Below, one piece after another: positions 10,892 through 46,500 of a stretch of DNA of 64,000 nt. How positions within the stretch are numbered: the stretch's first letter is position 1; each line of letters opens with the position of its first letter. A program made the position numbers and the translations under genes. The notes beneath the pieces are model-generated. The model did no database searches and was not told the DNA's origin. It worked only from the letters and a program-made list of their open reading frames with translations. Source of the stretch: Candidatus Woesearchaeota archaeon (GTDB lineage: Archaea > Nanobdellota > Nanobdellia > Pacearchaeales > GW2011-AR1); NCBI GenBank assembly GCA_964437555.1, contig CAYTHI010000002.1, positions 7,653 to 71,652 of the forward strand, read 5' to 3'.

Positions 10892-12655
10892 ATGAAACTA
10901 AAAAGAGGGATAATAATTGCTATAATCCTTATTGCAATAATCATTGCGTTTGTATTATACAAAAAAGAAATACTGCAATTTGGGGAAGACAATGAAAAAA
11001 GCAATTACATTCCAGGCCAGGCATCTATCGGATATATAGGATGCTCAAACACAAGAGAAACAGTTGAAGGCTATCACAGAGTAGGCGGAGGAGACATGTG
11101 GGATTATGATAAAAGATATGATTCAGGCGCTGTTAAAGACTGGGCGCTGGATGCAGAGCCGGAAAAAAGATATTGGAATGTCTTTGATGAGCTTCTTGAA
11201 GAAAATCCGAAAACTAAATTTATATGGTGGGAGCTCTGCATACGCGATGATGAAAGGGAAACAAATTATGAGCAAGCCCAGATTATTTTAAATGAAATCA
11301 GGCAGCGAATTCCTGATGCAGTAATTTATGTCTCTGCACTGGCAGATTATACAGAGGGGGTGTGCGAAATAACAGGCACATTCGGGATAGAAAAAGCAAA
11401 AGAATTAGTCCGGGAATTAGAAAATAATAACGCTGATGTATTTCCAGGCCCTGTGCTTGGCCCTATGGCTCCAATTGATACTGCAAAAGACGGCTGCCAT
11501 CTAAGCAGCCCTGATGGAAAAAGAAAATTAGGAAACCAGATGAAAAAATTCTTTGATAATGAAATGAAAACAGATGATAATGAGCTTTCCTTTGAGGAAA
11601 AAGTCTGGCAGCAGAGAATTGACGCTGCTGTTGCTCCTGTAAATTGCCCTGCAGCAACTCGAAGAACATATCCTCAAGGATATTATGCGGAAAAATTGAT
11701 TGATACTCATTTTCATATTGCTAACATTCCTGATTCAACGCCAAGGGAATTTGAAAAAGGATATCAGGAAGAAAGCGAGCATCCGAGATTAGGAAAAGAT
11801 ATTAGCATCGCAGATATTGTCTGCACTTTAGAGCATGAAGGAACAGCAAAGGCTCTCGGCTTCTTCCCCTTGTATAGGGAAATCCAAGAACAAATGGCTC
11901 AAGTTGTATATGAAACAATGCAAAAATACCCTGACAAATTTATTCCATTTATCATGCCTCCTGATAATGATGGCAGCCCTGATGGATTTCCAACAGTAGA
12001 AGCACAAACCTTGCAGGAAATGCTCAATATTTATCCTGGCTTGTTTGAAGGATACGGAGAAATTGGCTTATATGCGCGGGGAGACAATGGAGGCCCGACA
12101 GGCGCCCCAGAGCTCCCTCCAGACTCTCAAAGGCTTGCTGATATTTATCCAATAATCAGAGAAAATAATTTAGTTATTTACTTTCATTTAGGAGAAGGGC
12201 AAAAGGAAAGTTTTGAAACAGCCTTGACAGCAAATCCTGATATTAATTTCATCTGGCATGGAGACCAATTAATCCCATATGAAAATGGCATTCAAAACTT
12301 AGAGCATATTGATGATATTTTAAGCAATCATCCAAATGCATATTACGGAATAGATGAATTATATGGAGACATCTGGCTTCTCCGCCCTGAAGTCAGCAAG
12401 GAAGAATTTTTAGCGCATTTTGAAAATCAGGAAGAATTATTGGAAAAAGACCTTGCTACATGGAAAAATTTTATAGACTCCCATCCTAATCAGGTATTAT
12501 GGGGAACAGACAGGGGATGGAGTTCCAAATGGTCAATAGATAAAGATGTCGGAATAACATTATCTGATTACACCCGCGCTTTCATCGGCAGGCTCTCCCC
12601 AGATGTTCAGGAAAAATTCGCCTACAAAAATGCCGAGAGATTGTTTGGCGAATAA
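10892..12655 (+). CDS. Membrane-anchored two-domain protein with a C-terminal amidohydrolase-2/TIM-barrel metal-dependent hydrolase-like domain
   Basis: N-terminal TM helix (IIIAIILIAIIIAFVLY); DTHFHIAN and C-terminal LWGTDRGW motifs resemble amidohydrolase_2 family proteins. Confidence 0.5.
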   Translation: MKLKRGIIIAIILIAIIIAFVLYKKEILQFGEDNEKSNYIPGQASIGYIGCSNTRETVEGYHRVGGGDMWDYDKRYDSGAVKDWALDAEPEKRYWNVFDELLEENPKTKFIWWELCIRDDERETNYEQAQIILNEIRQRIPDAVIYVSALADYTEGVCEITGTFGIEKAKELVRELENNNADVFPGPVLGPMAPIDTAKDGCHLSSPDGKRKLGNQMKKFFDNEMKTDDNELSFEEKVWQQRIDAAVAPVNCPAATRRTYPQGYYAEKLIDTHFHIANIPDSTPREFEKGYQEESEHPRLGKDISIADIVCTLEHEGTAKALGFFPLYREIQEQMAQVVYETMQKYPDKFIPFIMPPDNDGSPDGFPTVEAQTLQEMLNIYPGLFEGYGEIGLYARGDNGGPTGAPELPPDSQRLADIYPIIRENNLVIYFHLGEGQKESFETALTANPDINFIWHGDQLIPYENGIQNLEHIDDILSNHPNAYYGIDELYGDIWLLRPEVSKEEFLAHFENQEELLEKDLATWKNFIDSHPNQVLWGTDRGWSSKWSIDKDVGITLSDYTRAFIGRLSPDVQEKFAYKNAERLFGE

Positions 12656-12670
12656 TTAATTAAATAAAAA

Positions 12671-12813
12671 TTTGGGCGGAGAAACCTGCAAGGTTTCGGA
12701 ACCGTTAAATTCCTGTTAATTGCCCCGAGCCGATAGGCGAGAGCGCAGCGTGGTCGAGGCAAAGCCGAAGAAGTTTTCAAAAATCCGTCATCAAGGGCGA
12801 AGCCCCATAAATT
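12671..12813 (+). repeat. GC-rich ~145-nt element, copy 1 (core GGGCGGAGAAACCTGCAAGGTTTCGGAACCG), lying ~100 nt upstream of gene 12911
   Basis: About 80% identity over the first ~50 nt with copy 2 at 14080-14228; local GC clearly above the window background; contains short hairpins (AAACCT-GCA-AGGTTT; GGTT-TCGG-AACC). Confidence 0.6.
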
Positions 12814-12823
12814 CAAATGTTTT

Positions 12824-12838
12824 AGAGGGGGAACTTTT
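12824..12838. repeat. Left arm (AGAGGGGGAACTTTT) of a 15-bp perfect inverted repeat bracketing gene 12911..13885
   Basis: Exact reverse complement of AAAAGTTCCCCCTCT at 13925-13939; ATGTTTT occurs on the outer side of both arms. Confidence 0.6.
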
Positions 12839-12910
12839 TATTTTTAATAGTCATTTAGGGGTAGTAAAATTATAGAAAGCTTTATAAAGTATCAGTTAAT
12901 TCAAATACTT

Positions 12911-13885
12911 ATGGAATTAGAGATTATTACAGAAAGAGAATCAAGCCCGTTTAGAAATATCTTTCCTGAAATATCTGAACATTCAAATGGTAGAAGGTAT
13001 GGACAAGACCTGAAAAAAATGGAACAAGTTATGGGCGAATTCTTAGATTCATTACACTTACCGAGAGATTCACGAACTTTAGAGATTGGAGCAGGACATG
13101 GGCAAGAACCATCTAAAGCACTTCTTGCATTAGGAGCGAAACCAGCGACATTAGATGCTGATTGGAATGAGTATTGTAAAGGAACTATTCCAACAACTAA
13201 GGATTTAGATAGAATTGGAGAAGCACAATTATATCCTATGTTGGCTGGTCAAAATGGCGTAAATCATTATCTTGGTGATGTTGCTTTCATTGGAGATGGA
13301 AGAAGCCAATTGAAAAATGAACGATTTGATTTGCTTTTTTATTGGGGGAGTATTCATGGAACTGATTTTTGTTCTTCAGTTCAGCAAAGTAGAACATCAA
13401 AATATGATTTCAAAAGAGATGTTCCATTAAAGGATAGGTTGGTTGCTCCAATTGGTAATGTAGAAAATAGTATGGCTTATGTTTCTGGATTTTTCAACAG
13501 AACAGGAGACCCGCATATGACACCAAAAAATATCATTGCTTTCAACGGCGATATGGTAGATACTGCATTGTTGTGGGCAAATTATGAGAACAGACAGCCA
13601 CACAGGGTTTTGGTTTTTGGTTTATCGCCTGATTTTGCATTTGAATATGTAAGGGGTGTCGGAGACGAATCTTTAATTGATAAACCAACAGACGCCGAAT
13701 ACAGAGAAGCCGTTGATAATGATACCATTGAAAAATTCATGGCAAATCATTGGTCAATGTTTTCTGACTACAAAGCAAAAGATAGTTCAGCGTATAGAAA
13801 AGCTTTGGAAGTCTTTTCTCCAGCACAGCAAAAAGCAATAAGTGATTTGGGTTTGGTGGATTGTGTTGCTGTGCAGTATAAATAA
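12911..13885 (+). CDS. Rossmann-fold methyltransferase-like protein (hypothetical)
   Basis: 324 aa; TLEIGAGHGQEP resembles SAM-MTase motif I and FDLLFYWG a post-II motif; codon usage slightly atypical for the window. Confidence 0.5.
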   Translation: MELEIITERESSPFRNIFPEISEHSNGRRYGQDLKKMEQVMGEFLDSLHLPRDSRTLEIGAGHGQEPSKALLALGAKPATLDADWNEYCKGTIPTTKDLDRIGEAQLYPMLAGQNGVNHYLGDVAFIGDGRSQLKNERFDLLFYWGSIHGTDFCSSVQQSRTSKYDFKRDVPLKDRLVAPIGNVENSMAYVSGFFNRTGDPHMTPKNIIAFNGDMVDTALLWANYENRQPHRVLVFGLSPDFAFEYVRGVGDESLIDKPTDAEYREAVDNDTIEKFMANHWSMFSDYKAKDSSAYRKALEVFSPAQQKAISDLGLVDCVAVQYK

Positions 13886-13904
13886 TTTCTTTTTTGCAGA
13901 AAAA

Positions 13905-13951
13905 GACTATCTGTCCGCAGCACTAAAAGTTCCCCCTCTTTCTATGTTTTA
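13905..13951 (+). repeat. Dispersed repeat family, copy A (AGACTATCTGTCCG ... CCCTCTTTCTATGTTTTA)
   Basis: Shares AGACTATyTGTCCG with copies D and B, and CCCTCT..CTTTCTATGTTTTA with copy C at 43826-43861. Confidence 0.55.
13925..13939. repeat. Right arm (AAAAGTTCCCCCTCT) of the 15-bp inverted repeat
   Basis: Perfect reverse complement of 12824-12838, 1.1 kb away. Confidence 0.6.
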
Positions 13952-14079
13952 GGATTTTTGAAAATTGCAATTAACATATGCGATTAAGCGACCTGAAAGG
14001 CTCGAGTGTAGAAATTTTTCCCTCGTGAAACAGAGCTGGAAAAATTGCGGAACGCTCGAGTGTTTTTGCGTAGCAAAAA

Positions 14080-14228
14080 TATGGGTGGAAAAACCTGCAA
14101 GGTTTTGGAACCGCTTAATCTGCTGTTCATTTCTCCCGAATACTTGTAGGGATTACATTTTAGTGCAACGATGCCGAAGGCAAAAATGTAAAGTTAAATC
14201 GGACTTTGGGATGGTGGGACACCATTGA
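14080..14228 (+). repeat. GC-rich ~150-nt element, copy 2 (core GGGTGGAAAAACCTGCAAGGTTTTGGAACCGC), ~135 nt upstream of gene 14364
   Basis: Paralog of 12671-12813 in the same orientation; the 87-aa ORF 13965..14228 overlapping it is probably spurious. Confidence 0.6.
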
Positions 14229-14261
14229 GTTTTATGTATTAGAGGATTCGCCGTCTTTTTG

Positions 14262-14322
14262 CTTCTTTTTTTCTAAAAAAGAAGTTTGAGATGGGGCTTT
14301 TGCCTTCTTTTTCTAAAAGAAG
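14262..14322 (+). promoter_or_regulatory. Two tandem perfect hairpins (CTTCTTTTTT-TCT-AAAAAAGAAG, then CTTCTTTT-TCT-AAAAGAAG) with T-tracts, directly upstream of gene 14364
   Basis: Perfect 10-bp and 8-bp stems with identical TCT loops, each preceded by TTTTGC; candidate terminator or regulatory structure. Confidence 0.5.
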
Positions 14323-14363
14323 TTTTAGTAAGATATTTAAATAAGTAAACTAATTTTCTTATA

Positions 14364-15083
14364 ATGGACAAATCAAAATATAGTGTTGAAGAAATTATTT
14401 TTAAAAAGTGCCCTATATGCAAAAAAGGAAAAGTAGAAAAATTAGCACCAAGGGGTTTTTTTAGTTTCGCTAAATCTACTAAAATGATTTGTAATAAATG
14501 TTTAGCACAATTCTCTGAAGATGAAGAATATCAAGAGGAACCAACTTACATATTGGATTTATCTGAATCTAATGAAAAGAATAAATATGAAGGTGAAACA
14601 TTAAAGAAAAGTGAATGGGAAAGAGGTATTTCTGATTTGGATTTATGCGTAAAAACAAATAACTTACCAAAAGCAAGTGTAGTCGGTTTGAAAATTATAC
14701 TAAAGCCAGGAGAACAAGCCCATTGGTATTCTTCTTCAAAACTTATGGAAGAAAGAGCAATAAGACGTTCACATGGTGGAGCTGTAAGGGTAATGAAAGG
14801 TGTATATATTGGAGGAAGCCAATCAGAATCTCATGGAGAATTAAGAACAATAGATAATGGGGGATTATTACTCACAAATCAAAGATTAATTTTTAATGGC
14901 GGATTCAAAAATATAGAATATCCTCTTAGTAAAATTGTTTCTGTAGAAGAATATAAAGATTCAATAGAAATAGGTTCAACTAACAGACAGAAAGTTCAGT
15001 TATATGTAGTTCAAGAACCACATAAATGGGCGACATTTGTTAAAATGGCTGTTCAAATGTCCCATAATGTAAAGAAAAAATAA
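14364..15083 (+). CDS. Zn-ribbon plus bacterial-PH (bPH/GRAM-like) domain protein
   Basis: N-terminal CPICKKG...CNKC zinc ribbon; C-terminal GGLLLTNQRLIF motif typical of bPH_2/YdbT-like PH domains. Confidence 0.55.
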   Translation: MDKSKYSVEEIIFKKCPICKKGKVEKLAPRGFFSFAKSTKMICNKCLAQFSEDEEYQEEPTYILDLSESNEKNKYEGETLKKSEWERGISDLDLCVKTNNLPKASVVGLKIILKPGEQAHWYSSSKLMEERAIRRSHGGAVRVMKGVYIGGSQSESHGELRTIDNGGLLLTNQRLIFNGGFKNIEYPLSKIVSVEEYKDSIEIGSTNRQKVQLYVVQEPHKWATFVKMAVQMSHNVKKK

Positions 15084-15101
15084 TTCTTAAAATTCATTTC
15101 G

Positions 15102-15134
15102 GCGAAGCAGACTATTTGTCCGAAGGACGCCCCC
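15102..15134 (+). repeat. Dispersed repeat family, copy D (GCGAAGCAGACTATTTGTCCGAAGGACGCCCCC)
   Basis: A 19-nt identical core (GCGAAGCAGACTATTTGTC) with copy B; contains the GTCC-GAA-GGAC hairpin. Confidence 0.55.
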
Positions 15135-15257
15135 ATCTCAAGAAAAAAAACTGAAAAATATTTGGGTGTAACGAAGTGAAACCTTTTATCGTTTGTTAGA
15201 TGAAGTGCGAAGCATTTCATAGCCGTTTTTTGGTCCGATAAAAGAAGTATTTTTCTG

Positions 15258-15299
15258 TTTTTACTTTCTGCGAAGCAGACTATTTGTCGCGAAGCGACC
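15258..15299 (+). repeat. Dispersed repeat family, copy B (GTTTTTACTTTCTGCGAAGCAGACTATTTGTCGCGAAGCGACC)
   Basis: Shares its left half with copy C (43826-43861) and its right half with copy D; contains the CTGC-GAA-GCAG and GTCGC-GAA-GCGAC hairpins. Confidence 0.55.
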
Positions 15300-15451
15300 G
15301 AGGCGACTCGCATTTGACAACAATTTCTACTATTGGGTGGGAGAGAATTTTTAATTTGGATGCAATCTGGGAACATAAAGTTATCCCAAGTAGAGTTGGG
15401 ATAACATGCCTAAATACGCATTATCATAAATTATAAATACAATACCATCTA

Positions 15452-16270
15452 ATGCAAAGCATGCAAAAAGAAGAACACCTTAAAAGGCTAAGGCAGGAGC
15501 TTGAGATAAGGAATTTTTCTAAGGAAACAATAAAATCCTACTTAAGTTCAGTCAATAAATTCCTTGATTATTCTAATGGCAATGAAATGAGCCAGCAAAA
15601 AGTCAAAGATTACATACAATCAAGAATAAGCAATAAAAATCCATCTACAATAAGGCAGGGCATATTCGCAATTCAGTTCTTTTTTGATAAGGTTTTAGGC
15701 CAGAAAATATACATTCCAAGGCCTAAAAAGAACAAAACTCTCCCTGAAATACTTACTCTTGAAGAAGCAAAAAAGCTTGTGAATGCTCCTTTAAACCCAA
15801 AACATCAGCTAATATTAAAAATTTTGTACGGATGCGGCTTACGTGTAAGTGAAGTTATAAGTTTGATGAAAAAAGACATTAATTTAGATGAAAGTATGAT
15901 TCACATAAGAATGGCAAAAGGAAAAAAGGACAGGTTCGTAAAAATTCCTGAAAGCGTAAAAGAAGAGTTAGAGCATTATGCGGTTCTTAACAAAGAAGAA
16001 CTCTTATTCCCCTCGCAAAGAGGCGGAAAGCTTACAACAGCAGGAATTCAGGCAATAGTTGAAAAATCAGCCAAAAAAACAGGAATAAAAAAAGATGTTT
16101 ATCCGCACCTGCTAAGGCATAGTTTTGCAACCCATCTCCTTGAGCAGGGCACAGACTTAAGAATAATCCAAAAATTATTAGGGCATTCAGATATCAGAAC
16201 TACACAAATGTATCTTCAGATTTCACAGCAATCTATAAAAAACATAAGAAGCCCCTTAGACAGCAAATAA
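15452..16270 (+). CDS. xerA: Tyrosine site-specific recombinase, XerA/XerCD-like
   Basis: 272 aa; C-terminal LLRHSFATHLLEQGTDLRIIQKLLGHSDIRTTQMYLQI contains the R..H..R..Y catalytic signature of tyrosine recombinases. Confidence 0.85.
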   Translation: MQSMQKEEHLKRLRQELEIRNFSKETIKSYLSSVNKFLDYSNGNEMSQQKVKDYIQSRISNKNPSTIRQGIFAIQFFFDKVLGQKIYIPRPKKNKTLPEILTLEEAKKLVNAPLNPKHQLILKILYGCGLRVSEVISLMKKDINLDESMIHIRMAKGKKDRFVKIPESVKEELEHYAVLNKEELLFPSQRGGKLTTAGIQAIVEKSAKKTGIKKDVYPHLLRHSFATHLLEQGTDLRIIQKLLGHSDIRTTQMYLQISQQSIKNIRSPLDSK

Positions 16271-16271
16271 A

Positions 16272-18548
16272 ATGCCAATTCAAAGCTATCCCCCAACAAC
16301 AGATGCAAAGATAACTGTAGAAAAAACTGTAAAGCGAAAGCCTTCAACAGAAGAGCTTACAACAATAGAAAAGCCAGGCAAGCCAATTCCAGCTTCAGAG
16401 ATGGAAGAATTTGAAAAAGAAAAGCCAAAAAAAACAAAAAAAGCAAGAAGGCAAAATAAGCCAAAAACCCAAGAAGCAACAAAAATAAGCCAAAAGCAGG
16501 ATGCAATATTAATAATAACAGAAAAGCCGCAAGCTGCATTGAAAATTGCCTCTGCATTGGGAGATGCAAGAAAATATTCTGAAAATAATGTTCCTTTCTA
16601 TGAATTGGAGAAAAACAATGAGAAAATAATTGTCGCTTCTGCAGTGGGGCATTTGTTTAATCTTACATATGTGAAAGGCCAGACAGGCTGGCCTATCTTC
16701 AAGACAGAATGGGTCCCATCCTATACTCAAAAAGCTTCCTATACAAAAAATTACTATGATTTAATAAAAAAATTATCAAGAAGGGCAAAAGAAATAATCG
16801 TTTCTACTGATTATGACATAGAAGGAGAAGTAATAGGGTGGAACGTCCTTAGATTTATCTGCAGCAAAGAAGACGCAAAAAGGATGAAATACTCTACATT
16901 AACAAAGCCTGAATTAATAAAATCATATGAAAATGCAATGCCTCATCTGGATTGGGGGCAGGCGTATGCAGGTGAAACAAGGCATGAAATAGACTGGCTT
17001 TACGGAATTAACCTATCAAGGGCATTAATGTCTGCAATAAAAACTACAGGCGGCTTCAAGATACTTTCAATAGGCCGTGTTCAGGGCCCTGCATTAAAAA
17101 TAATAGTGGACAGGGAAAAAGAAATATCAAGCTTCAAATCCAAAGTGTATTGGCAGGTTTTTGCCATTATAGGAAAAAATGAGTTTAAGCATCCCAAAGA
17201 TATTTTTGAAAAGACAGAACTTGAGCAATTTAAAGATATAAAAGAAGCTGACGCAGAAACAAAAGCATCCGAAGAAAATCTGCAGCCTCCGCATCCGTTT
17301 GATTTAACAGCACTGCAAAGAGAAGCATATCGCCTTCATAACTTAAGCCCTTCAAAAACTCTTCAGATAGCGCAGGCATTATACTTAGACGGAGTTATTT
17401 CGTATCCCAGAACTTCCTCGCAAAAAATACCAGAGCAGATAGAGCCAAAAAATATCCTTGAAAAATTAGCTAAGAAATATCCCCAGACAAAATATGCCGT
17501 GAGAAGCAAGCCGGTTGAAGGCGGGAAATCAGACCCTGCTCACCCTTCAATATACCCAACAGGCGAATTTAACAATTCATTAAAAGAAGATGAAAAAGAG
17601 CTATATGAATTAATAGTAAAAAGATTCATAGCCTGCTTTTGCGAGGATGCAATAACAGCAAATAAAAGGATAAAGCTGGCATCATTAAAAGACCCTAAAA
17701 AAACATTTACAGCTTCTGCCCTGACAATAAAAGAAAAAGGCTGGCTGAATGTTTACCCAACAGAATTGCAGGAAAGCTCTTTGCCTGACTTATCAGGAAG
17801 AGTAAAAATAGACAAAATCAGGATTGATGAAAAGCTTACACAGCCTCCGAAAAGATACACGCCTGCTTCTTTAGTCTCCTTACTGGAAAAAAAGAATCTC
17901 GGCACAAAAACAACAAGAAGCATGATTGTAGATACTTTATTTGACCGCGGATATTTAGACGGAAAAAGCATTCAGGCAACTCCTCTTGGTTTAAAACTTA
18001 TTGAAACCCTGGAAAAATATTCTCCGATAATTATTGACGAAAACCTCACAAGAGAATTAGAGGAAAAAATGGAAGAAATTCAGAATTCAAAAGCTGGTTT
18101 TCAGGAAAAGAAAGATAAAGTCATCCATAATGTTGAAAGATTAATCACAGACATCTCAAAAGAATTCAGAATTAATGAAAGAAACATCGGGCAGGATTTA
18201 TTGCAGGGCACACAAGAGTTAAGAGAACAGCAGAAAGAAAACAGCATAATAATGCCCTGCCCTGTCTGCAAAAAAGGGCATTTAGCGATAAAATACTCAA
18301 AAAAGAACAGAAGGCAGTTTGTTGCCTGTGATAATTACCCTGAATGCAAAACAACTTTCTCTCTGCCCCCCGGCGGATTTGTAAAAAAAACAGACAAAGT
18401 TTCAGAAAAAGGCCTGCCAATATTAATTTTATTAAAAAGAGGCAGGCGTCCGTGGGAATTTCCATTCAATCCAAACTGGAAAGCCGAGCAGCAAAAAGAA
18501 CAGCAGGAACATCAAGAACAGAAACCCCAAAAAGATAGCGAAGAATAA
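16272..18548 (+). CDS. topA: DNA topoisomerase, type IA (Topo I/III-like), with a C-terminal C4 zinc ribbon and a Lys/Glu/Pro-rich ~90-aa N-terminal extension
   Basis: TOPRIM begins at AILIITEKPQAA; type IA core motifs (GYISYPRT-like VISYPRTSSQ); CPVCKKG...CDNYPEC zinc ribbon; low-complexity basic N-terminus and acidic/Q-rich C-terminus. Confidence 0.85.
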   Translation: MPIQSYPPTTDAKITVEKTVKRKPSTEELTTIEKPGKPIPASEMEEFEKEKPKKTKKARRQNKPKTQEATKISQKQDAILIITEKPQAALKIASALGDARKYSENNVPFYELEKNNEKIIVASAVGHLFNLTYVKGQTGWPIFKTEWVPSYTQKASYTKNYYDLIKKLSRRAKEIIVSTDYDIEGEVIGWNVLRFICSKEDAKRMKYSTLTKPELIKSYENAMPHLDWGQAYAGETRHEIDWLYGINLSRALMSAIKTTGGFKILSIGRVQGPALKIIVDREKEISSFKSKVYWQVFAIIGKNEFKHPKDIFEKTELEQFKDIKEADAETKASEENLQPPHPFDLTALQREAYRLHNLSPSKTLQIAQALYLDGVISYPRTSSQKIPEQIEPKNILEKLAKKYPQTKYAVRSKPVEGGKSDPAHPSIYPTGEFNNSLKEDEKELYELIVKRFIACFCEDAITANKRIKLASLKDPKKTFTASALTIKEKGWLNVYPTELQESSLPDLSGRVKIDKIRIDEKLTQPPKRYTPASLVSLLEKKNLGTKTTRSMIVDTLFDRGYLDGKSIQATPLGLKLIETLEKYSPIIIDENLTRELEEKMEEIQNSKAGFQEKKDKVIHNVERLITDISKEFRINERNIGQDLLQGTQELREQQKENSIIMPCPVCKKGHLAIKYSKKNRRQFVACDNYPECKTTFSLPPGGFVKKTDKVSEKGLPILILLKRGRRPWEFPFNPNWKAEQQKEQQEHQEQKPQKDSEE

Positions 18549-20510: not shown

Positions 20511-20532
20511 GAAGAAATAAAGATTAACTTGT

Positions 20533-20619
20533 GATCCCGTAGCTCAGCCTGGTTAGAGCACTGCTCTGATAAGCCTATCAGAAAGGCAGGGGTCCCAAGT
20601 TCAAATCTTGGCGGGATCA
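20533..20619 (+). tRNA. tRNA-Ile (anticodon GAT) with a 12-nt intron at the canonical 37/38 position
   Basis: Acceptor GATCCCG/CGGGATC, D-arm GCTC-AGCCTGGTTA-GAGC, anticodon stem CTGCT/GGCAG with loop CTGATAA, T-arm CCAAG-TTCAAAT-CTTGG; the inserted GCCTATCAGAAA has TATCAG pairing with CTGATA (BHB-like). Confidence 0.75.
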
Positions 20620-20654
20620 TTCATAAAAGAGCATACTTAAACAAAGAGAGCAAA

Positions 20655-44070: not shown

Positions 44071-44093
44071 CGTTTTTGCCCCACAATTATTAT

Positions 44094-44181
44094 GTCCCCG
44101 TAGCTCAGTTGGTTAGAGCGCACGGCTGTTAAAATTAGTTTAGAAACCGTGATGTCCGAGGTTCGAGTCCTCGCGGGGACG
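44094..44181 (+). tRNA. tRNA-Asn (anticodon GTT) with a 14-nt intron
   Basis: Acceptor GTCCCCG/CGGGGAC, D-arm GCTC-AGTTGGTTA-GAGC, anticodon stem CACGG/CCGTG with loop CTGTTA-A split by AAATTAGTTTAGAA, T-arm CGAGG-TTCGAGT-CCTCG. Confidence 0.75.
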
Positions 44182-44230
44182 TTCTATCTCTCTAAGATAA
44201 ATTTAAATTTAATTATTAATTACCAATACA

Positions 44231-45402: not shown

Positions 45403-46500
45403 ATGGAAAAACAAAAGACAGTTGTCGTAGGCCTTTCTGGAGGCGTAGATTCAGCCGTAGCTGCCTTTCTTCTGAAAAAGCAGGGATATAAAGTGATAGG
45501 CGCTTTCATGAAAAACTTTTCAGATACAAAAAATATGCTGACAGAAGAATGCAATTGGGTTGAAGAAAAAAAAGAAGCCATTAAGGTTGCAGCGCACCTT
45601 AAAATTCCGCTTGTTGTTTTTGATTTTGAGGAAGAATATAAAAAATATGTTATAGCTCCGATGATTAAAGCATACTCAAAAGGCTTGACACCTAATCCTG
45701 ATGCATTGTGCAATAAAATAATAAAATTTCCTTTATTCTGGAAAGAAGCAAAAAAGCTTGGAGCAGATTACATGGCATTTGGTCATTATATAAAAAGCAA
45801 AAAAACAAAATCCGAATATAAACTCTTCATTCCCGAAAATAAAAAAAAAGACCAGTCCTACTTCCTATACCAATTGAATCAGAAAGATTTAGAACATGCA
45901 CTTTTCCCAATAGGAGATTATACAAAACTAGGAATCAGGAAAATAGCAAAGAAAAACAATTTTCCTAATTATAACAGAAAAAGCACTTCCGGAATATGTT
46001 TTGTGGGAAAAGTCAACCTGAAAGATTTTCTAAGCAAGAAGATTAAGCCAAAAGAAGGAAATATTTTGTCAACTGAAGGAGAAATTATAGGAACTCATCC
46101 GGGCATATTTTATTACACAAACGGGCAAAGAATAGGTGAATCATTAGGATTTCATATAAGCAATAAATATCTAAATAAAGAAAAAAATAAATTATACATA
46201 GCGGAAAAAGACAAAACAAGGAATACTATAACAATAGCTCCTAAAGGTCATTCTGCCCTAAAGAAAAAAGAATTAGTAATAATTAATTTCAATTTAATAA
46301 ATAAAAATAATAGAATTCCATTAAATTGCAAGGTAAGAATACGGCATCTCGGCTCTCTAATGGACGTAAGATTAAAAAAACAACACAATAAATTTCTATG
46401 TATTCTGAAAAAACCTGTCCTCGGTCTCGCAGAAGGCCAATCCGCAGTTATCTATAATGGCAAAGAAGTTTTAGGCGGCGGAGAGATTAGATTTAAATAA
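45403..46500 (+). CDS. mnmA: tRNA-specific 2-thiouridylase MnmA
   Basis: PP-loop VVVGLSGGVDSAVAA; C-terminal catalytic Cys region; 365 aa. Confidence 0.8.
   Translation: MEKQKTVVVGLSGGVDSAVAAFLLKKQGYKVIGAFMKNFSDTKNMLTEECNWVEEKKEAIKVAAHLKIPLVVFDFEEEYKKYVIAPMIKAYSKGLTPNPDALCNKIIKFPLFWKEAKKLGADYMAFGHYIKSKKTKSEYKLFIPENKKKDQSYFLYQLNQKDLEHALFPIGDYTKLGIRKIAKKNNFPNYNRKSTSGICFVGKVNLKDFLSKKIKPKEGNILSTEGEIIGTHPGIFYYTNGQRIGESLGFHISNKYLNKEKNKLYIAEKDKTRNTITIAPKGHSALKKKELVIINFNLINKNNRIPLNCKVRIRHLGSLMDVRLKKQHNKFLCILKKPVLGLAEGQSAVIYNGKEVLGGGEIRFK

Follow-up and report, generated by a model that had tools for sequence, protein, structure and literature searches.

A methyltransferase-like gene within nested inverted repeats as a candidate cassette of a Xer-linked array in DPANN archaea

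The methyltransferase-like gene analysed here is most likely one exchangeable cassette of a previously undescribed Xer-linked array that is widespread in DPANN archaea. In the window, by which we mean the whole stretch of 64,000 nucleotides, the gene is enclosed by nested inverted repeats, and the ends of the unit are dif-like. The same unit was found as an exactly delimited block in another locus, frames of its type were observed around other cargo, and the arrays formed by such frames are associated with xerA. As judged from their sequence, ends that match Xer/dif-type core sites point to site-specific recombination rather than to MITE-type transposition.

The 15-mer AGAGGGGGAACTTTT is located at positions 12824-12838 of the forward strand and its exact reverse complement, AAAAGTTCCCCCTCT, at 13925-13939, with a gap of 1086 nt between them. 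Both are unique in the 64-kb window, even with two mismatches allowed, and the only long open reading frame (ORF) between them is that of 324 amino acids at 12911-13885. A preliminary description of this DNA had reported a perfect 15-bp inverted repeat about 1.1 kb apart around exactly one gene, and its coordinates as well as the single ORF were confirmed. The 15-mers are the innermost of three perfect arm pairs (10, 13 and 15 nt) that are nested and colinear. The middle pair consists of TTTTCAAAAATCC (12774-12786) and GGATTTTTGAAAA (13952-13964), and the outer pair, TGTTAATTGC (12714-12723) and GCAATTAACA (13967-13976), is situated in two Xer-type core sites. The arms pair best across their own cargo (15 of 15 positions here) and not across the spacer element. 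A G-box, AGAnGGGGnnCTTTT, is found throughout the family, and AGAGGGGGAACTTTT is the variant of it specific to this cassette. The pair of 15-mers also surrounds the orthologous gene in loci L001 and L162; in L165 the left arm is present, on a contig that stops short of the right one.

In 200 first-order Markov simulations of the window, whose sequence has a G+C content of 36%, perfect 15-nt inverted repeats within 1.5 kb were expected 0.47 times per window for any composition and 0.04 times for arms with at least six G+C. An earlier estimate of fewer than 0.1 such repeats by chance is therefore right for the G+C-rich arm, whereas it does not hold for 15-mers of any composition. Although a chance inverted repeat in AT-rich DNA would be no surprise if composition were ignored (about 0.5 expected per window), this explanation is effectively refuted by the value for G+C-rich arms, by the two further nested arm pairs, by the retention of the repeat in L001 and L165, and by the like architecture of dozens of loci.

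Comparison with L001, the protein of which is 90% identical, defined the extent of the unit. This locus shares with the whole window only positions 12707-13980 (1274 bp, 92% identity), a block that begins 3 nt ahead of the left spacer and includes the right spacer up to its final base; the neighbour genes of L001 are unrelated. Since the shared block spans this interval, the 15-mers, which lie 117 nt and 41 nt inside it, are not the termini of the element for which they had been taken; the true cassette ends read 5'-TGTTA...TAACA-3'. The heptamer ATGTTTT, proposed before as a flanking target duplication, does occur on both sides: the copy at 12817-12823 is immediately adjacent to the left arm, and TTCT lies between the right arm and the copy at 13944-13950. 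It is not a target-site duplication, because both copies are inside the transferred block and the left one reads ATGATTT in L001. No end duplication was present next to TGTTA...TAACA in the four cassettes of the window, L001, L012 and L015.

Starting from the left, and with all features on the forward strand, the cassette is preceded by a first copy of module A (12670-12709), composed of ATTTGGGCGG, the hairpin GAAACCT-GCA-AGGTTTC (12681-12697) and CGGAACCGTTAAA, the 3' end of which provides the junction-side arm of the left core site. The module is repeated at 14075-14119 with 87% identity, a G-C pair of the stem being replaced there by A-T in a compensatory manner; homologues of the module were found in many DPANN loci. 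The CTGCAAG loop had suggested a tRNA-Cys fragment or split-tRNA half, an idea that was discarded since there is no D or T arm and both ARAGORN and Rfam were negative. The left Xer-type core site (12699-12726) reads GAACCGTTAAA/TTCCTG/TTAATTGCCCC, an 11-6-11 geometry, and the cassette starts with its right arm (12716-12726). The consensus of 119 left ends is AAACCnTTTAA/TCGCTG/TTAnTTTCTCC. B' (12724-12773; CCCGAGCCGATAGGCGAGAGCGCAGCGTGGTCGAGGCAAAGCC...), a variant B-type module, is inserted in the left frame and has no equivalent in the right one; it aligns with module B of other cassettes and recurs in L014, L095, L125, L088, L110, L113 and L025. Between the middle and the inner arm lies a GGGC-GAA-GCCC mini-hairpin of the GNA triloop type (12795-12805).

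An archaeal TATA box, CTTTATAAAG (12880-12889), is kept in all five closest orthologous loci; its position 21 nt upstream of the ATG suggests a leaderless mRNA. Directly after the stop codon, a T-run conserved in orthologous loci (TTTCTTTTTTG, 13886-13897) probably acts as an archaeal oligo-T terminator, and both 15-mer arms would thus lie outside the transcription unit. The right frame begins with module R (13898-13924; ...AGACTATCTGTCCGCAGCAC), which recurs at 15109-15127 and 15277-15288 as well as in L001, L012, L015 and L133, and continues with the inner arm; a 91% homologue of 13884-13939 is found behind a different gene in L133. The cassette right end (13964-13980) comprises a box resembling the dif left arm, ATTGCAATTAA (13964-13974), and the spacer CATATG (13975-13980), and the left and right spacers differ (TTCCTG versus CATATG). 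The right core site as a whole covers 13964-13991, and the sole exact occurrence of ATTGNANNTAAC in the window is this right end.

The cargo protein contains the motif I sequence LEIGAGHG followed by an acidic LDAD. Class I SAM methyltransferases are recognised by a Rossmann-like seven-strand fold, by a motif I rich in glycine and by an acidic residue that follows strand 2. The search for homologues gave no more than 14, and residues E58, G60, A61, G62, D82 and D84 do not vary in an alignment of 14 sequences. There was no Pfam match at E ≤ 0.1 and no NCBIfam match at E ≤ 0.01, which leaves the protein outside the curated methyltransferase families of these two collections. According to its AlphaFold2 model (pLDDT 79, pTM 0.84), the protein has a class I SAM-methyltransferase fold: among the best 50 matches listed by Foldseek against the PDB, nearly all were class I SAM methyltransferases or resembled methyltransferases (best E = 2e-5), although TM values were only 0.3-0.43, and a PDB profile search gave TehB as the best match (E = 0.07). 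The original term methyltransferase-like is hence appropriate at the level of the fold only, and the matching methyltransferases act on small molecules and are not enzymes of restriction-modification. The gene was also considered as a novel transposase of an IS-sized element and dismissed on account of the methyltransferase fold, the single-copy graded orthologues, and L004, where the orthologue is embedded in an operon without repeats.

The cassette belongs to an island (12656-15451) that consists of the methyltransferase cassette, a second cassette and an empty frame, and that abuts xerA. The two cassettes are separated by junction element J (13981-14125), with the stem GCGATTAAGCG...CGCTTAATC, internal hairpins and the second copy of module A; it ends with GAACCGCTTAA/TCTGCTG, after which the next right arm follows. 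Folded as single-stranded DNA, 13960-14135 reached -32 kcal/mol (z = -4.5, compared with -7.9 for a canonical J copy) in the form of a long-stemmed branched hairpin with a 2-nt bulge. Cassette 2 (14126-15141) has the order right arm (TTCATTTCTCC, 14126-14136), module B (core 14160-14180), T-rich hairpins, G-box arm (TTGAGATGGGG, 14286-14296), ORF (14364-15083, 239 amino acids, with a weak GRAM-like match), module R and C-box arm (CCCCATCTCAA, 15131-15141). The ORF-free frame, or empty cassette 3 (15160-15373), contains module A' and ...CGTTTG/TTAGATGAAGT, together with a pair of CGAAG hairpins and an R-type module; its terminal left-arm box, which closes with GGGAA, is degenerate. Overall, C-GAA-G mini-hairpins are strongly strand-specific (272 versus 6), and the stem of module B covaries. 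A search of the window with Rfam at gathering thresholds gave no more than three tRNAs, and 12500-15600 had no credible match even at E ≤ 10.

The xerA-proximal terminal site (15374-15406) consists of the spacer CATAAAG and a right-arm-like sequence, TTATCCCAAGT, which overlaps the palindrome AGTTATCCCAA/GTAGAG/TTGGGATAACA; the equivalent place in L133 reads ATTGGATATAA/CATAAAG/TTATCATAAGT. This palindrome (15379-15406) was rejected as dif itself, since its sequence is lineage-specific and unlike archaeal dif arms; it may represent an overlapping right arm, an operator or a hairpin. The xerA gene (15452-16270), 1.5 kb downstream of the methyltransferase cassette, which has no recombinase of its own, encodes a tyrosine recombinase of 272 amino acids (Pfam Phage_integrase, 1e-40) and is directly followed by topA (16272-18548). 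The recombinase passed the NCBIfam model recomb_XerA_Arch (242 bits against a cut-off of 220), whereas with the integron-integrase model TIGR02249 it reached 202 bits, in two separate stretches, against a cut-off of 265.

The experimentally validated dif site of P. abyssi is ATTGGATATAA/TCGGCC/TTATATCTAAA (PMC2958812), and the dif sites of Thermococcales have been tabulated (PMC4640148). ATTGCAATTAA matches the Thermococcales left-arm consensus at 9 of 11 positions, ATTGGATATAA occurs exactly in L133 and L027, and a site in L025 is identical to P. abyssi dif at 19 of 28 positions. Compact sites with two arms separated by 5-7 nt, such as ATTGAATATAA/TTCCTG/TTAGTTTCGTC, were found 18 times in 1.12 Mb of related loci when 0.73 were expected (about 25-fold), and TTCCTG is the commonest spacer among them. 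The cassette-side arms match both the family consensus and the archaeal dif arm, whereas the junction-side arms match weakly; in GAACCGTTAAA and CGATTAAGCGA the likeness to dif arms is limited to TTAA. At most junctions two good arms are 60-150 nt apart with J in between, and the arms could therefore act only after J folds or extrudes. The Thermococcales consensus itself was not retained for scanning, being AT-rich and unspecific in this genome (about 20 chance matches per window).

The link to xerA was observed in several comparisons. Among 120 chunks of 8 kb (765 kb) picked solely for carrying repeat module B, 16 contained XerA-like genes, the largest protein cluster there, when about one was expected (an enrichment of about 20-fold). 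Of the five metagenomic xerA loci with an identity of 60% or more and with 2 kb or more of sequence upstream, four had the modules upstream of xerA, all co-oriented. In 11 of 29 loci a left-arm box preceded the start of xerA by 81-131 nt, compared with 3 matches in a threefold amount of control sequence; the xerA-proximal box of the window itself is degenerate.

Frames of the same kind carry different cargo. Common frames were found in L012, which has the same gene family as the methyltransferase cargo, and in L015, with two other genes in opposite orientation, and the right frame of the methyltransferase cassette is situated behind hsdS in L133. Cassette 2 of the window and L071 have the same flanks and different cargo, of three genes in the latter. 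The replacement took place at the inner G-box arms and not at the core sites, so that homologous recombination within frames also shuffles cargo. Inverted repeats that span the cargo are general, with z ≥ 4 in 23 of 67 frame units. Besides the present orphan methyltransferase, the cargo seen in such cassettes included restriction-modification methyltransferases, type I R-M subunits and nucleotidyltransferases. What had been described as a minimal cassette thus behaves as a discrete, recombinase-less, movable unit bounded by inverted repeats and present in unrelated contexts. An orthologous locus without the cassette, L160, was reached via APH, a neighbour gene in L001, but synteny ends at the same point and it is therefore no clean empty site; neither a precise empty site nor a circular junction was found. 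A search for other contexts of the exact window protein gave only a contig of 1391 nt identical to 12730-14120, and viral contigs matched neither module B nor the right-end pattern.

We consider that the gene probably resides in a recombinase-less cassette integrated through the centre of a palindromic dif-like site, and by analogy this cassette may well be comparable to bacterial IMEX elements, dif modules or integron cassettes. The unit would be self-contained, with its own TATA promoter, ORF and oligo-T terminator and no recombinase. Each cassette begins with a right arm (TTAATTGCCCC here) and ends with a left arm (ATTGCAATTAA), the Xer/dif-type core sites that bound it being made up of an 11-nt arm, a 6-7-nt spacer and another 11-nt arm. 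A circular form, which we infer, would carry one palindromic attachment region that consists of the core site and of accessory inverted repeats on both sides (the 13-mer and the 15-mer with a G5 core). Recombination by XerA between the centre of the palindrome and a dif-like chromosomal site would integrate the circle and split the palindrome, leaving nested colinear inverted repeats around the cargo with the core arms outermost and the 15-mers innermost; excision could occur by recombination between the two directly repeated flanking sites. Arguing against this model are the unlike spacers of the cassette, the weakly matching junction-side arms, the distance between good arms at most junctions, the degenerate xerA-proximal box of the window, the low specificity of the Thermococcales dif consensus in this genome, the replacement of cargo at the G-box arms of cassette 2, and the fact that neither a circular junction nor a precise empty site was found. 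The 15-mers may serve as accessory or architectural elements, or as clamps of a folded single strand, and a single-stranded step like that of attC or CTX phage is hinted at by the strand-specific GAA-triloop mini-hairpins of the array. More tentatively, the DPANN archaea (Woese-, Pace-, Nano-, Aenigm- and Micrarchaeota) might possess an integron-analogous gene-capture platform run by the housekeeping XerA, in which self-expressing arrays of accessory and defence cassettes are placed beside xerA/dif, a hairpin-forming palindromic attachment region is split on integration, and the module kit comprises A, B, J, R, G-boxes and strand-specific GNA-triloop mini-hairpins.

The modules could instead be passive mosaic intergenic repeats around accessory genes, like bacterial REP/BIME or BOX, with no dedicated recombinase, which we regard as unlikely; the same low likelihood is given to the proposal that goes with it, namely that cargo is swapped by ordinary homologous recombination within shared modules. 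The gene-spanning inverted repeat would then arise because palindromic modules are oppositely oriented on the two sides. The free combination of modules A, B, R, T-rich hairpins and G-boxes, with B able to stand alone, is in line with passive repeats, as are the breaks of homology between cassette 2 and L071 at the edges of shared modules and the frequent position of modules at contig ends, usual for multi-copy repeats (Logan contig L164 ends inside modules). However, passive repeats leave unexplained the 25-fold excess of dif-like 11-6-11 ends, the block shared with L001 that ends exactly at two spacers, the enrichment of xerA together with the left-arm box at a fixed distance, and the best arm match across the own cargo. 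In integrons, attC sites have the organisation R''(RYYYAAC)-L''...L'-R'(GTTRRRY), are 55-141 nt long and fold with extrahelical bases, IntI has an extra domain around patch III, and promoterless cassettes are expressed from a common Pc. If J were an attC-like single-stranded fold (R''-L''...L'-R') with exchange at G/TT by an integron-type integrase, its bulged and branched hairpin, the resemblance of the boxes ...TAAC and GTTA... to RYYYAAC and GTTRRRY, the strand-specific mini-hairpins and the covarying stem of module B would find an explanation. The window copy of J has R'' AATTAAC (6 of 7 positions), R' GTTCATT (5 of 7) and a length of about 170 nt, and integrons do exist in archaea, Nanoarchaeota included (PMC9668308). 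Such a system is nonetheless quite improbable: the adjacent recombinase lacks the IntI-specific region and yet passes the XerA model, the cassettes have their own promoters (the conserved TATA box, and the T-run after the stop), compact J-free junctions are ordinary duplex 11-6-11 sites, the block shared with L001 leaves out J whereas an integron cassette would carry its attC, and none of the motifs was found in supplementary data of the study on archaeal integrons (PMC9668308).

The transposition first suggested would involve a non-autonomous element (a MITE or foldback element with a passenger) on whose terminal inverted repeats a DDE transposase acts in trans. Long imperfect terminal inverted repeats (with CGMTGTTARWWYC as candidate terminal repeat), true ends that fit the TG...CA typical of many DDE elements, the single-gene cargo, the different contexts and the frames without cargo would all suit it. 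It is made improbable by the lack of target-site duplications at the true ends of the four cassettes, ATGTTTT being internal, by the absence of any recurrent transposase family in the 120 related chunks (765 kb), by terminal repeats without a second copy in the window, and by arrays that are ordered and co-oriented beside xerA, not dispersed. We assign a very low probability to a local role in RNA or regulation, whether by pairing within a long transcript (a processing or circularisation stem), as symmetric insulators or terminators, or as regulator sites. The G-run and T-run arms pointing away from the gene on both sides and the strand-specific hairpins could be read in this way; nevertheless, both arms lie outside the conserved TATA-to-T-run unit, and the geometry is not bulge-helix-bulge (37 nt against 12 nt between helices), for which two reasons a long-range RNA stem or circular RNA was rejected. 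The empty Rfam result for 12500-15600 also speaks against a local role, and block transfer and dif-like ends would remain unexplained.

Several known systems resemble the Xer-linked cassette. The dif (pdif) modules of Acinetobacter plasmids and chromosomes (PMC6449649, PMC13141974) are likewise small and recombinase-less, with a single accessory gene or a few of them between Xer-type 11-6-11 sites, the arms of which turn the module ends into inverted repeats; they lie side by side, one module occurs in several contexts, and the host Xer is the presumed agent. The array reported here differs in being archaeal, with a single XerA instead of XerC/XerD, in having its sites within frames of 100-250 nt with nested inverted repeats, hairpins and own promoters and terminators, and in being chromosomal and abutting xerA, many junctions having a structured insert between the arms. 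Inverted core boxes (...AAC/GTT...) at the ends, co-oriented arrays of single-gene cassettes beside a tyrosine recombinase, and inter-cassette imperfect palindromes that fold single-stranded with bulged bases are shared with integron cassettes (PMC9668308). Unlike in integrons, the recombinase is a XerA without the IntI-specific domain, the cassettes have their own promoters, and the palindrome is split near its centre, which leaves long arms on both sides of the cargo, compact duplex-type junctions being present too. MITEs and foldback elements have in common with the cassette long imperfect inverted repeats around a short cargo, non-autonomy and empty versions; here there is no target-site duplication or dispersed multi-copy spread, no transposase family recurred in the 120 related chunks, and the location is site-specific beside xerA. 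IMEX (the CTX, VGJ and TLC phages and the gonococcal island) lack their own integrase, integrate at dif and lie in tandem arrays with dif-like sites in between, and the attP of CTX phage is a folded single-stranded palindrome (for a review, see PMC5357621). In comparison with them, the cassettes described here carry between one and three genes of cellular type in place of a phage or island, and there are no replication or transfer genes. The chromosomal dif of Thermococcales shares the arm ATTGGATATAA, TTATAT... and the 11-6-11 geometry, and it is flanked by inverted repeats that its authors proposed as binding sites for a partner protein (Cortez et al., 2010); unlike the sites of the array, it occurs once per chromosome, not beside xerA, and without cassettes.

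DPANN archaea are host-dependent and have tiny genomes, and almost nothing has been described of the biology of mobile elements in them. No Xer-exploiting elements of archaea were found in the literature searched, and a 2021 review of archaeal tyrosine recombinases does not contain the terms IMEX, hijack or DPANN. If a modular, Xer-linked cassette system of this kind is present in well over a hundred species-level genomes, it would explain how accessory and defence genes are exchanged without transposases or integrases. It would extend the exploitation of Xer from bacteria to archaea, as the first archaeal case, and might stand as a third independent solution next to integrons and the dif modules of Acinetobacter; the predicted XerA substrates could be tested in vitro. 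The repeat modules break assemblies, and module-bearing contigs occur in bins labelled bacteria or methanogens, for which reason the modules could also be used as markers of DPANN contigs and of mis-binning.

The 15-mer AGAGGGGGAACTTTT (12824-12838) and its exact reverse complement (13925-13939) enclosed a single long ORF (12911-13885, 324 aa), which bore out the preliminary description of a perfect 15-bp inverted repeat around exactly one gene. The repeat is not a common unpaired motif in the window, where no further copy was found even when 2 mismatches were permitted. Markov simulations gave, per window, 0.04 perfect inverted repeats of 15 nt lying within 1.5 kb for arms with a G+C of at least 6 but 0.47 for arms of any composition, so that the earlier estimate of fewer than 0.1 chance occurrences holds for the GC-rich class only. 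Two further perfect arm pairs, a middle one (TTTTCAAAAATCC, 12774-12786 and 13952-13964) and an outer one (TGTTAATTGC and GCAATTAACA, 12714-12723 and 13967-13976), were nested and colinear with the 15-mers, the innermost pair. The right flank of the cassette was compact (52 nt in total) and the left flank carried the same three arms with two insertions between them. The 15-mer proved to be a cassette-specific variant of the G-box AGAnGGGGnnCTTTT, found family-wide in the repeat frames, and inverted repeats across cargo are a general trait of frame units (z > 4 in 23 of 67). Two related loci carried particularly long perfect examples, of 55 nt spanning 3.3 kb of cargo (L116, 3944-3998 and 7318-7372) and of 61 nt plus tandem 20-mers with 5.8 kb of cargo (L127, 1383-1484 and 7270-7371).

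When the whole 64-kb window was compared with L001, a related locus encoding a protein 90% identical to the cargo protein, a single common block was found (12707-13980, 1274 bp, 92% identity). The 15-mers lay deep within it, as did both copies of ATGTTTT (12817-12823 and 13944-13950), the left one reading ATGATTT in L001. Because both copies are inside the transferred block, ATGTTTT cannot be a target duplication produced by insertion of the unit, and we rejected it as such. The left edge of the block lay 3 nt ahead of the spacer of the left dif-like site, and its right edge was the final base of the spacer of the right one. Tyrosine recombinases exchange strands at spacer borders, so these edges lie where breakpoints are expected. 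Of the MITE-like cassette proposed earlier, the exchangeable one-gene unit is thus retained, whereas the 15-mers are internal and the target duplication is lost; we are confident that the unit belongs to a repeat-framed, DPANN-wide family of mobile or exchangeable cassettes and is not a MITE with target-site duplication. A 1391-nt contig from an independent Logan run (L164, SRR12113430) was 100% identical to window positions 12730-14120, its ends falling in the repeat modules B' and A, as would fit a branching of the assembly graph at repeats. Neither a circle junction of the cassette nor a clean empty site was found in the loci and contigs examined.

The search for other cargo between the same repeats, suggested in the preliminary description, was positive for the frames. 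L012, whose cargo belongs to the family of the window methyltransferase-like gene, and L015, which carries two other genes in reverse orientation, had both long frames in common, the arms TTTTTGAGAATGCC, GAGAGACGCGC and GGGGATTTCC included. The flanks of window cassette 2 recurred with 93% and 82% identity in L071, a locus syntenic with the window (array, xerA, topA), but between them lay three genes bracketed by TGGGGCACTTTTAG and CTAAAAGTGCCCCA. In this pair the cargo was replaced at the inner G-box arms, and homologous recombination within frames therefore also contributes. L133, which encodes the XerA closest to that of the window (86%), had a 91% homologue of the right frame (13884-13939, including AAAAG-CCCCCTCT) after an hsdM-hsdS pair, and the remainder of its array differed again; the xerA-linked locus is therefore hypervariable.

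The block ended at the left in the core site ...GAACCGTTAAA-TTCCTG-TTAATTGCCCC (12699-12726) and at the right in ATTGCAATTAA-CATATG-... (13964-13980), the two spacers being unequal. The consensus of 119 aligned left ends of related loci was AAACCnTTTAA-TCGCTG-TTAnTTTCTCC, and right ends had ATTGnAnnTAA in common, followed by CA. The experimentally validated dif of Pyrococcus abyssi is ATTGGATATAA-TCGGCC-TTATATCTAAA (PMC2958812), and the Thermococcales consensus is WTKDSMTATAA-TVDDYM-TTATATSHMAA (PMC4640148). The right-end box agreed with the P. abyssi left arm at all eight conserved positions, and ATTGGATATAA itself was present in L133 and L027. Where cassettes abutted without further insert, a compact 11-6-11 junction was formed, e.g., ATTGAATATAA-TTCCTG-TTAGTTTCGTC; 18 such sites were counted in 1.12 Mb of related loci against 0.73 expected under box independence, and one (L025) was identical to P. 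abyssi dif at 19 of 28 positions. At most junctions the element J was inserted between the two good arms, and the junction-side arms matched dif poorly. The dif consensus is AT-rich and by itself unspecific in the genome of the window. A match to 20 of 22 positions of the Thermococcales arm consensus at 46149-46175 (ATTTCATATAA-GCAAT-AAATATCTAAA), inside an ORF (45403-46500), is probably due to chance in AT-rich DNA.

The same parts were used throughout the interval between the amidohydrolase gene and xerA (12656-15451). Cassette 2 (14126-15141) holds a 239-aa ORF between TTGAGATGGGG and CCCCATCTCAA, and is followed by an ORF-less frame, a degenerate left-arm box, a palindrome and xerA-topA. 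Copies of the right-frame module R, one after cassette 2 and one in the empty frame, make up a 24-nt direct repeat, TTTC(G/T)GCGAAGCAGACTATTTGTC (15097-15120 and 15265-15288, 96% identical). The recombinase scored above the cut-off of the NCBIfam equivalog model for archaeal XerA (242 versus 220 bits) and below that of the integron-integrase model (202 versus 265 bits). Its gene stops at 16270, directly adjacent to the topoisomerase I gene starting at 16272 (pair at 15452-18548), a pairing kept in the closest relatives (L071, L015, L133) but absent from the xerA loci of more remote ones. Among five metagenomic xerA loci of 60% identity or more with 2 kb or more of upstream sequence, four had modules upstream, all co-oriented with xerA. 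A left-arm box preceded the xerA start by 81-131 nt in 11 of 29 loci, versus 3 hits in threefold control sequence; in 8 of 12 loci inspected, TTA... or TTC... came 6-7 nt after the box. The palindrome AGTTATCCCAA-GTAGAG-TTGGGATAACA (15379-15406) separates the last dif-like box from the TATA box of xerA and may represent an operator, a hairpin or an overlapping right arm. Both arms were changed in its L133 counterpart (2930-2957, AGTTATCATAA-GTAAAC-TTAGGATAACA), where they still matched at 9 of 11 positions, and other lineages had unrelated palindromes of about 11-(6-8)-11, with arms of up to 15 nt, in the same place.

On balance, we slightly favor the view that the methyltransferase-like gene is cargo of a cassette bounded by Xer sites. 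That the nested repeats are colinear, with the recombination arms on the outside, would be explained most simply by a split palindrome: a circular cassette would carry one core site with accessory inverted repeats on both sides, and recombination of this core with a chromosomal dif-like site would leave one palindrome half on each side of the cargo. Arms would then be best matched across their own cargo (15/15 here) and yet all share a consensus. Catalysis by XerA and a circular intermediate are inferred, as is the role of the 15-mers. In Thermococcales, too, dif has inverted repeats on its flanks, to which a partner protein was proposed to bind (Cortez et al.), and the accessory repeats parallel these. 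The system appears to work like Acinetobacter dif modules, IMEX arrays and integron cassettes and to be a member of none, differing from them in being archaeal, in its single XerA without an IntI domain, in cassettes with their own promoters and in long modular palindromic frames. The literature searched yielded no Xer-exploiting elements in archaea, and nothing relevant on mobile elements or repeats of Woese- and Pacearchaeota; a 2021 review of archaeal tyrosine recombinases lacks the terms "IMEX", "hijack" and "DPANN", and the available part of the supplements of the archaeal integron paper lacks the cassette motifs.

Related loci were collected with module B, TTAGTGCAACGnTnCCGAAGG, as probe. 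At least 120 species-level genomes, the majority from several DPANN phyla, contained exact matches to its 19 specified bases; the corresponding contig chunks of GTDB species representatives (at least 120) came mostly from DPANN lineages and in part from bins labelled other archaea or bacteria, with many of the listed matches at contig ends, and no match was found in viral contigs. Within the 120 chunks listed (765 kb), XerA-like proteins formed the largest family (gene in 16 chunks versus about 1 expected), followed by DNA methyltransferases, TrmB-like regulators and nucleotidyltransferases, and no recurring transposase was found. Module B (window copy at 14150-14195, core 14160-14180) is a hairpin with a 6-9-bp stem and a near-invariant loop, TTTAGTGCAACGaTGCCGAAGGCAAAA, and may act as a protein-binding site or as a structure in DNA or RNA; the stem covaries, with a perfect 6-nt complement in 89 of 125 copies versus 34 after re-pairing. 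Element J folds strongly as DNA (z = -7.9 for a canonical copy, -4.5 for that of the window), and C-GAA-G mini-hairpins numbered 272 on one strand versus 6 on the other, 6 of the 8 on the window plus strand lying inside the island. Hairpins of the GNA-triloop type, d(GCGAAGC), are unusually stable in DNA. Because of the folding of J, the covariation and the one-strand bias, a single-stranded step in cassette movement is possible.

The cargo gene has a palindromic TATA box, CTTTATAAAG, 21 nt upstream of its ATG. Its product matched no Pfam or NCBIfam family, and a search of 5.8 billion protein clusters yielded only 14 homologues. An AlphaFold2 model from the homologue alignment was fairly confident (pLDDT 79, pTM 0.84), and nearly all of the top 50 PDB neighbours listed for it were class I SAM-dependent methyltransferases or proteins resembling these, for the most part N- and C-methyltransferases of small molecules; E-values reached 2e-5 at best, with low TM-scores (0.3-0.43). 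Since motif I (E58, G60, A61, G62) and D82/D84 were also invariant across the alignment, "methyltransferase-like" is correct at the fold level; nothing in the protein pointed to a restriction-modification enzyme. Gene neighbourhoods differed in each homologue. The gene lacked any flanking repeats in more distant orthologues (L004, L010 and L011, at most 66% identity) and was tightly embedded in an operon in L004; it is therefore captured cargo of which the repeats are not a part.

The closest relatives of the window were DPANN metagenome-assembled genomes throughout; with the introns of its tRNA genes and the palindromic TATA box, this assigns the window to a DPANN archaeon. DPANN repeat modules also occurred on contigs in bins labelled Bacteroidales, Patescibacteria, Thioploca, Peregrinibacteria, Methanosarcinales, Methanocellales or Thermoplasmatales (L037, L058, L063 and L080; also L014, L016, L028, L047 and L067), which probably reflects mis-binning, true cross-lineage spread being the alternative. 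The window contains two intron-bearing tRNA genes of 88-90 nt (20532-20620 and 44093-44182), the anticodon of the former not being named by ARAGORN. The sequence AAACCTTGCAGG in the amidohydrolase ORF (12006-12017) is the exact complement of the module A hairpin core CCTGCAAGGTTT (12685 and 14094).
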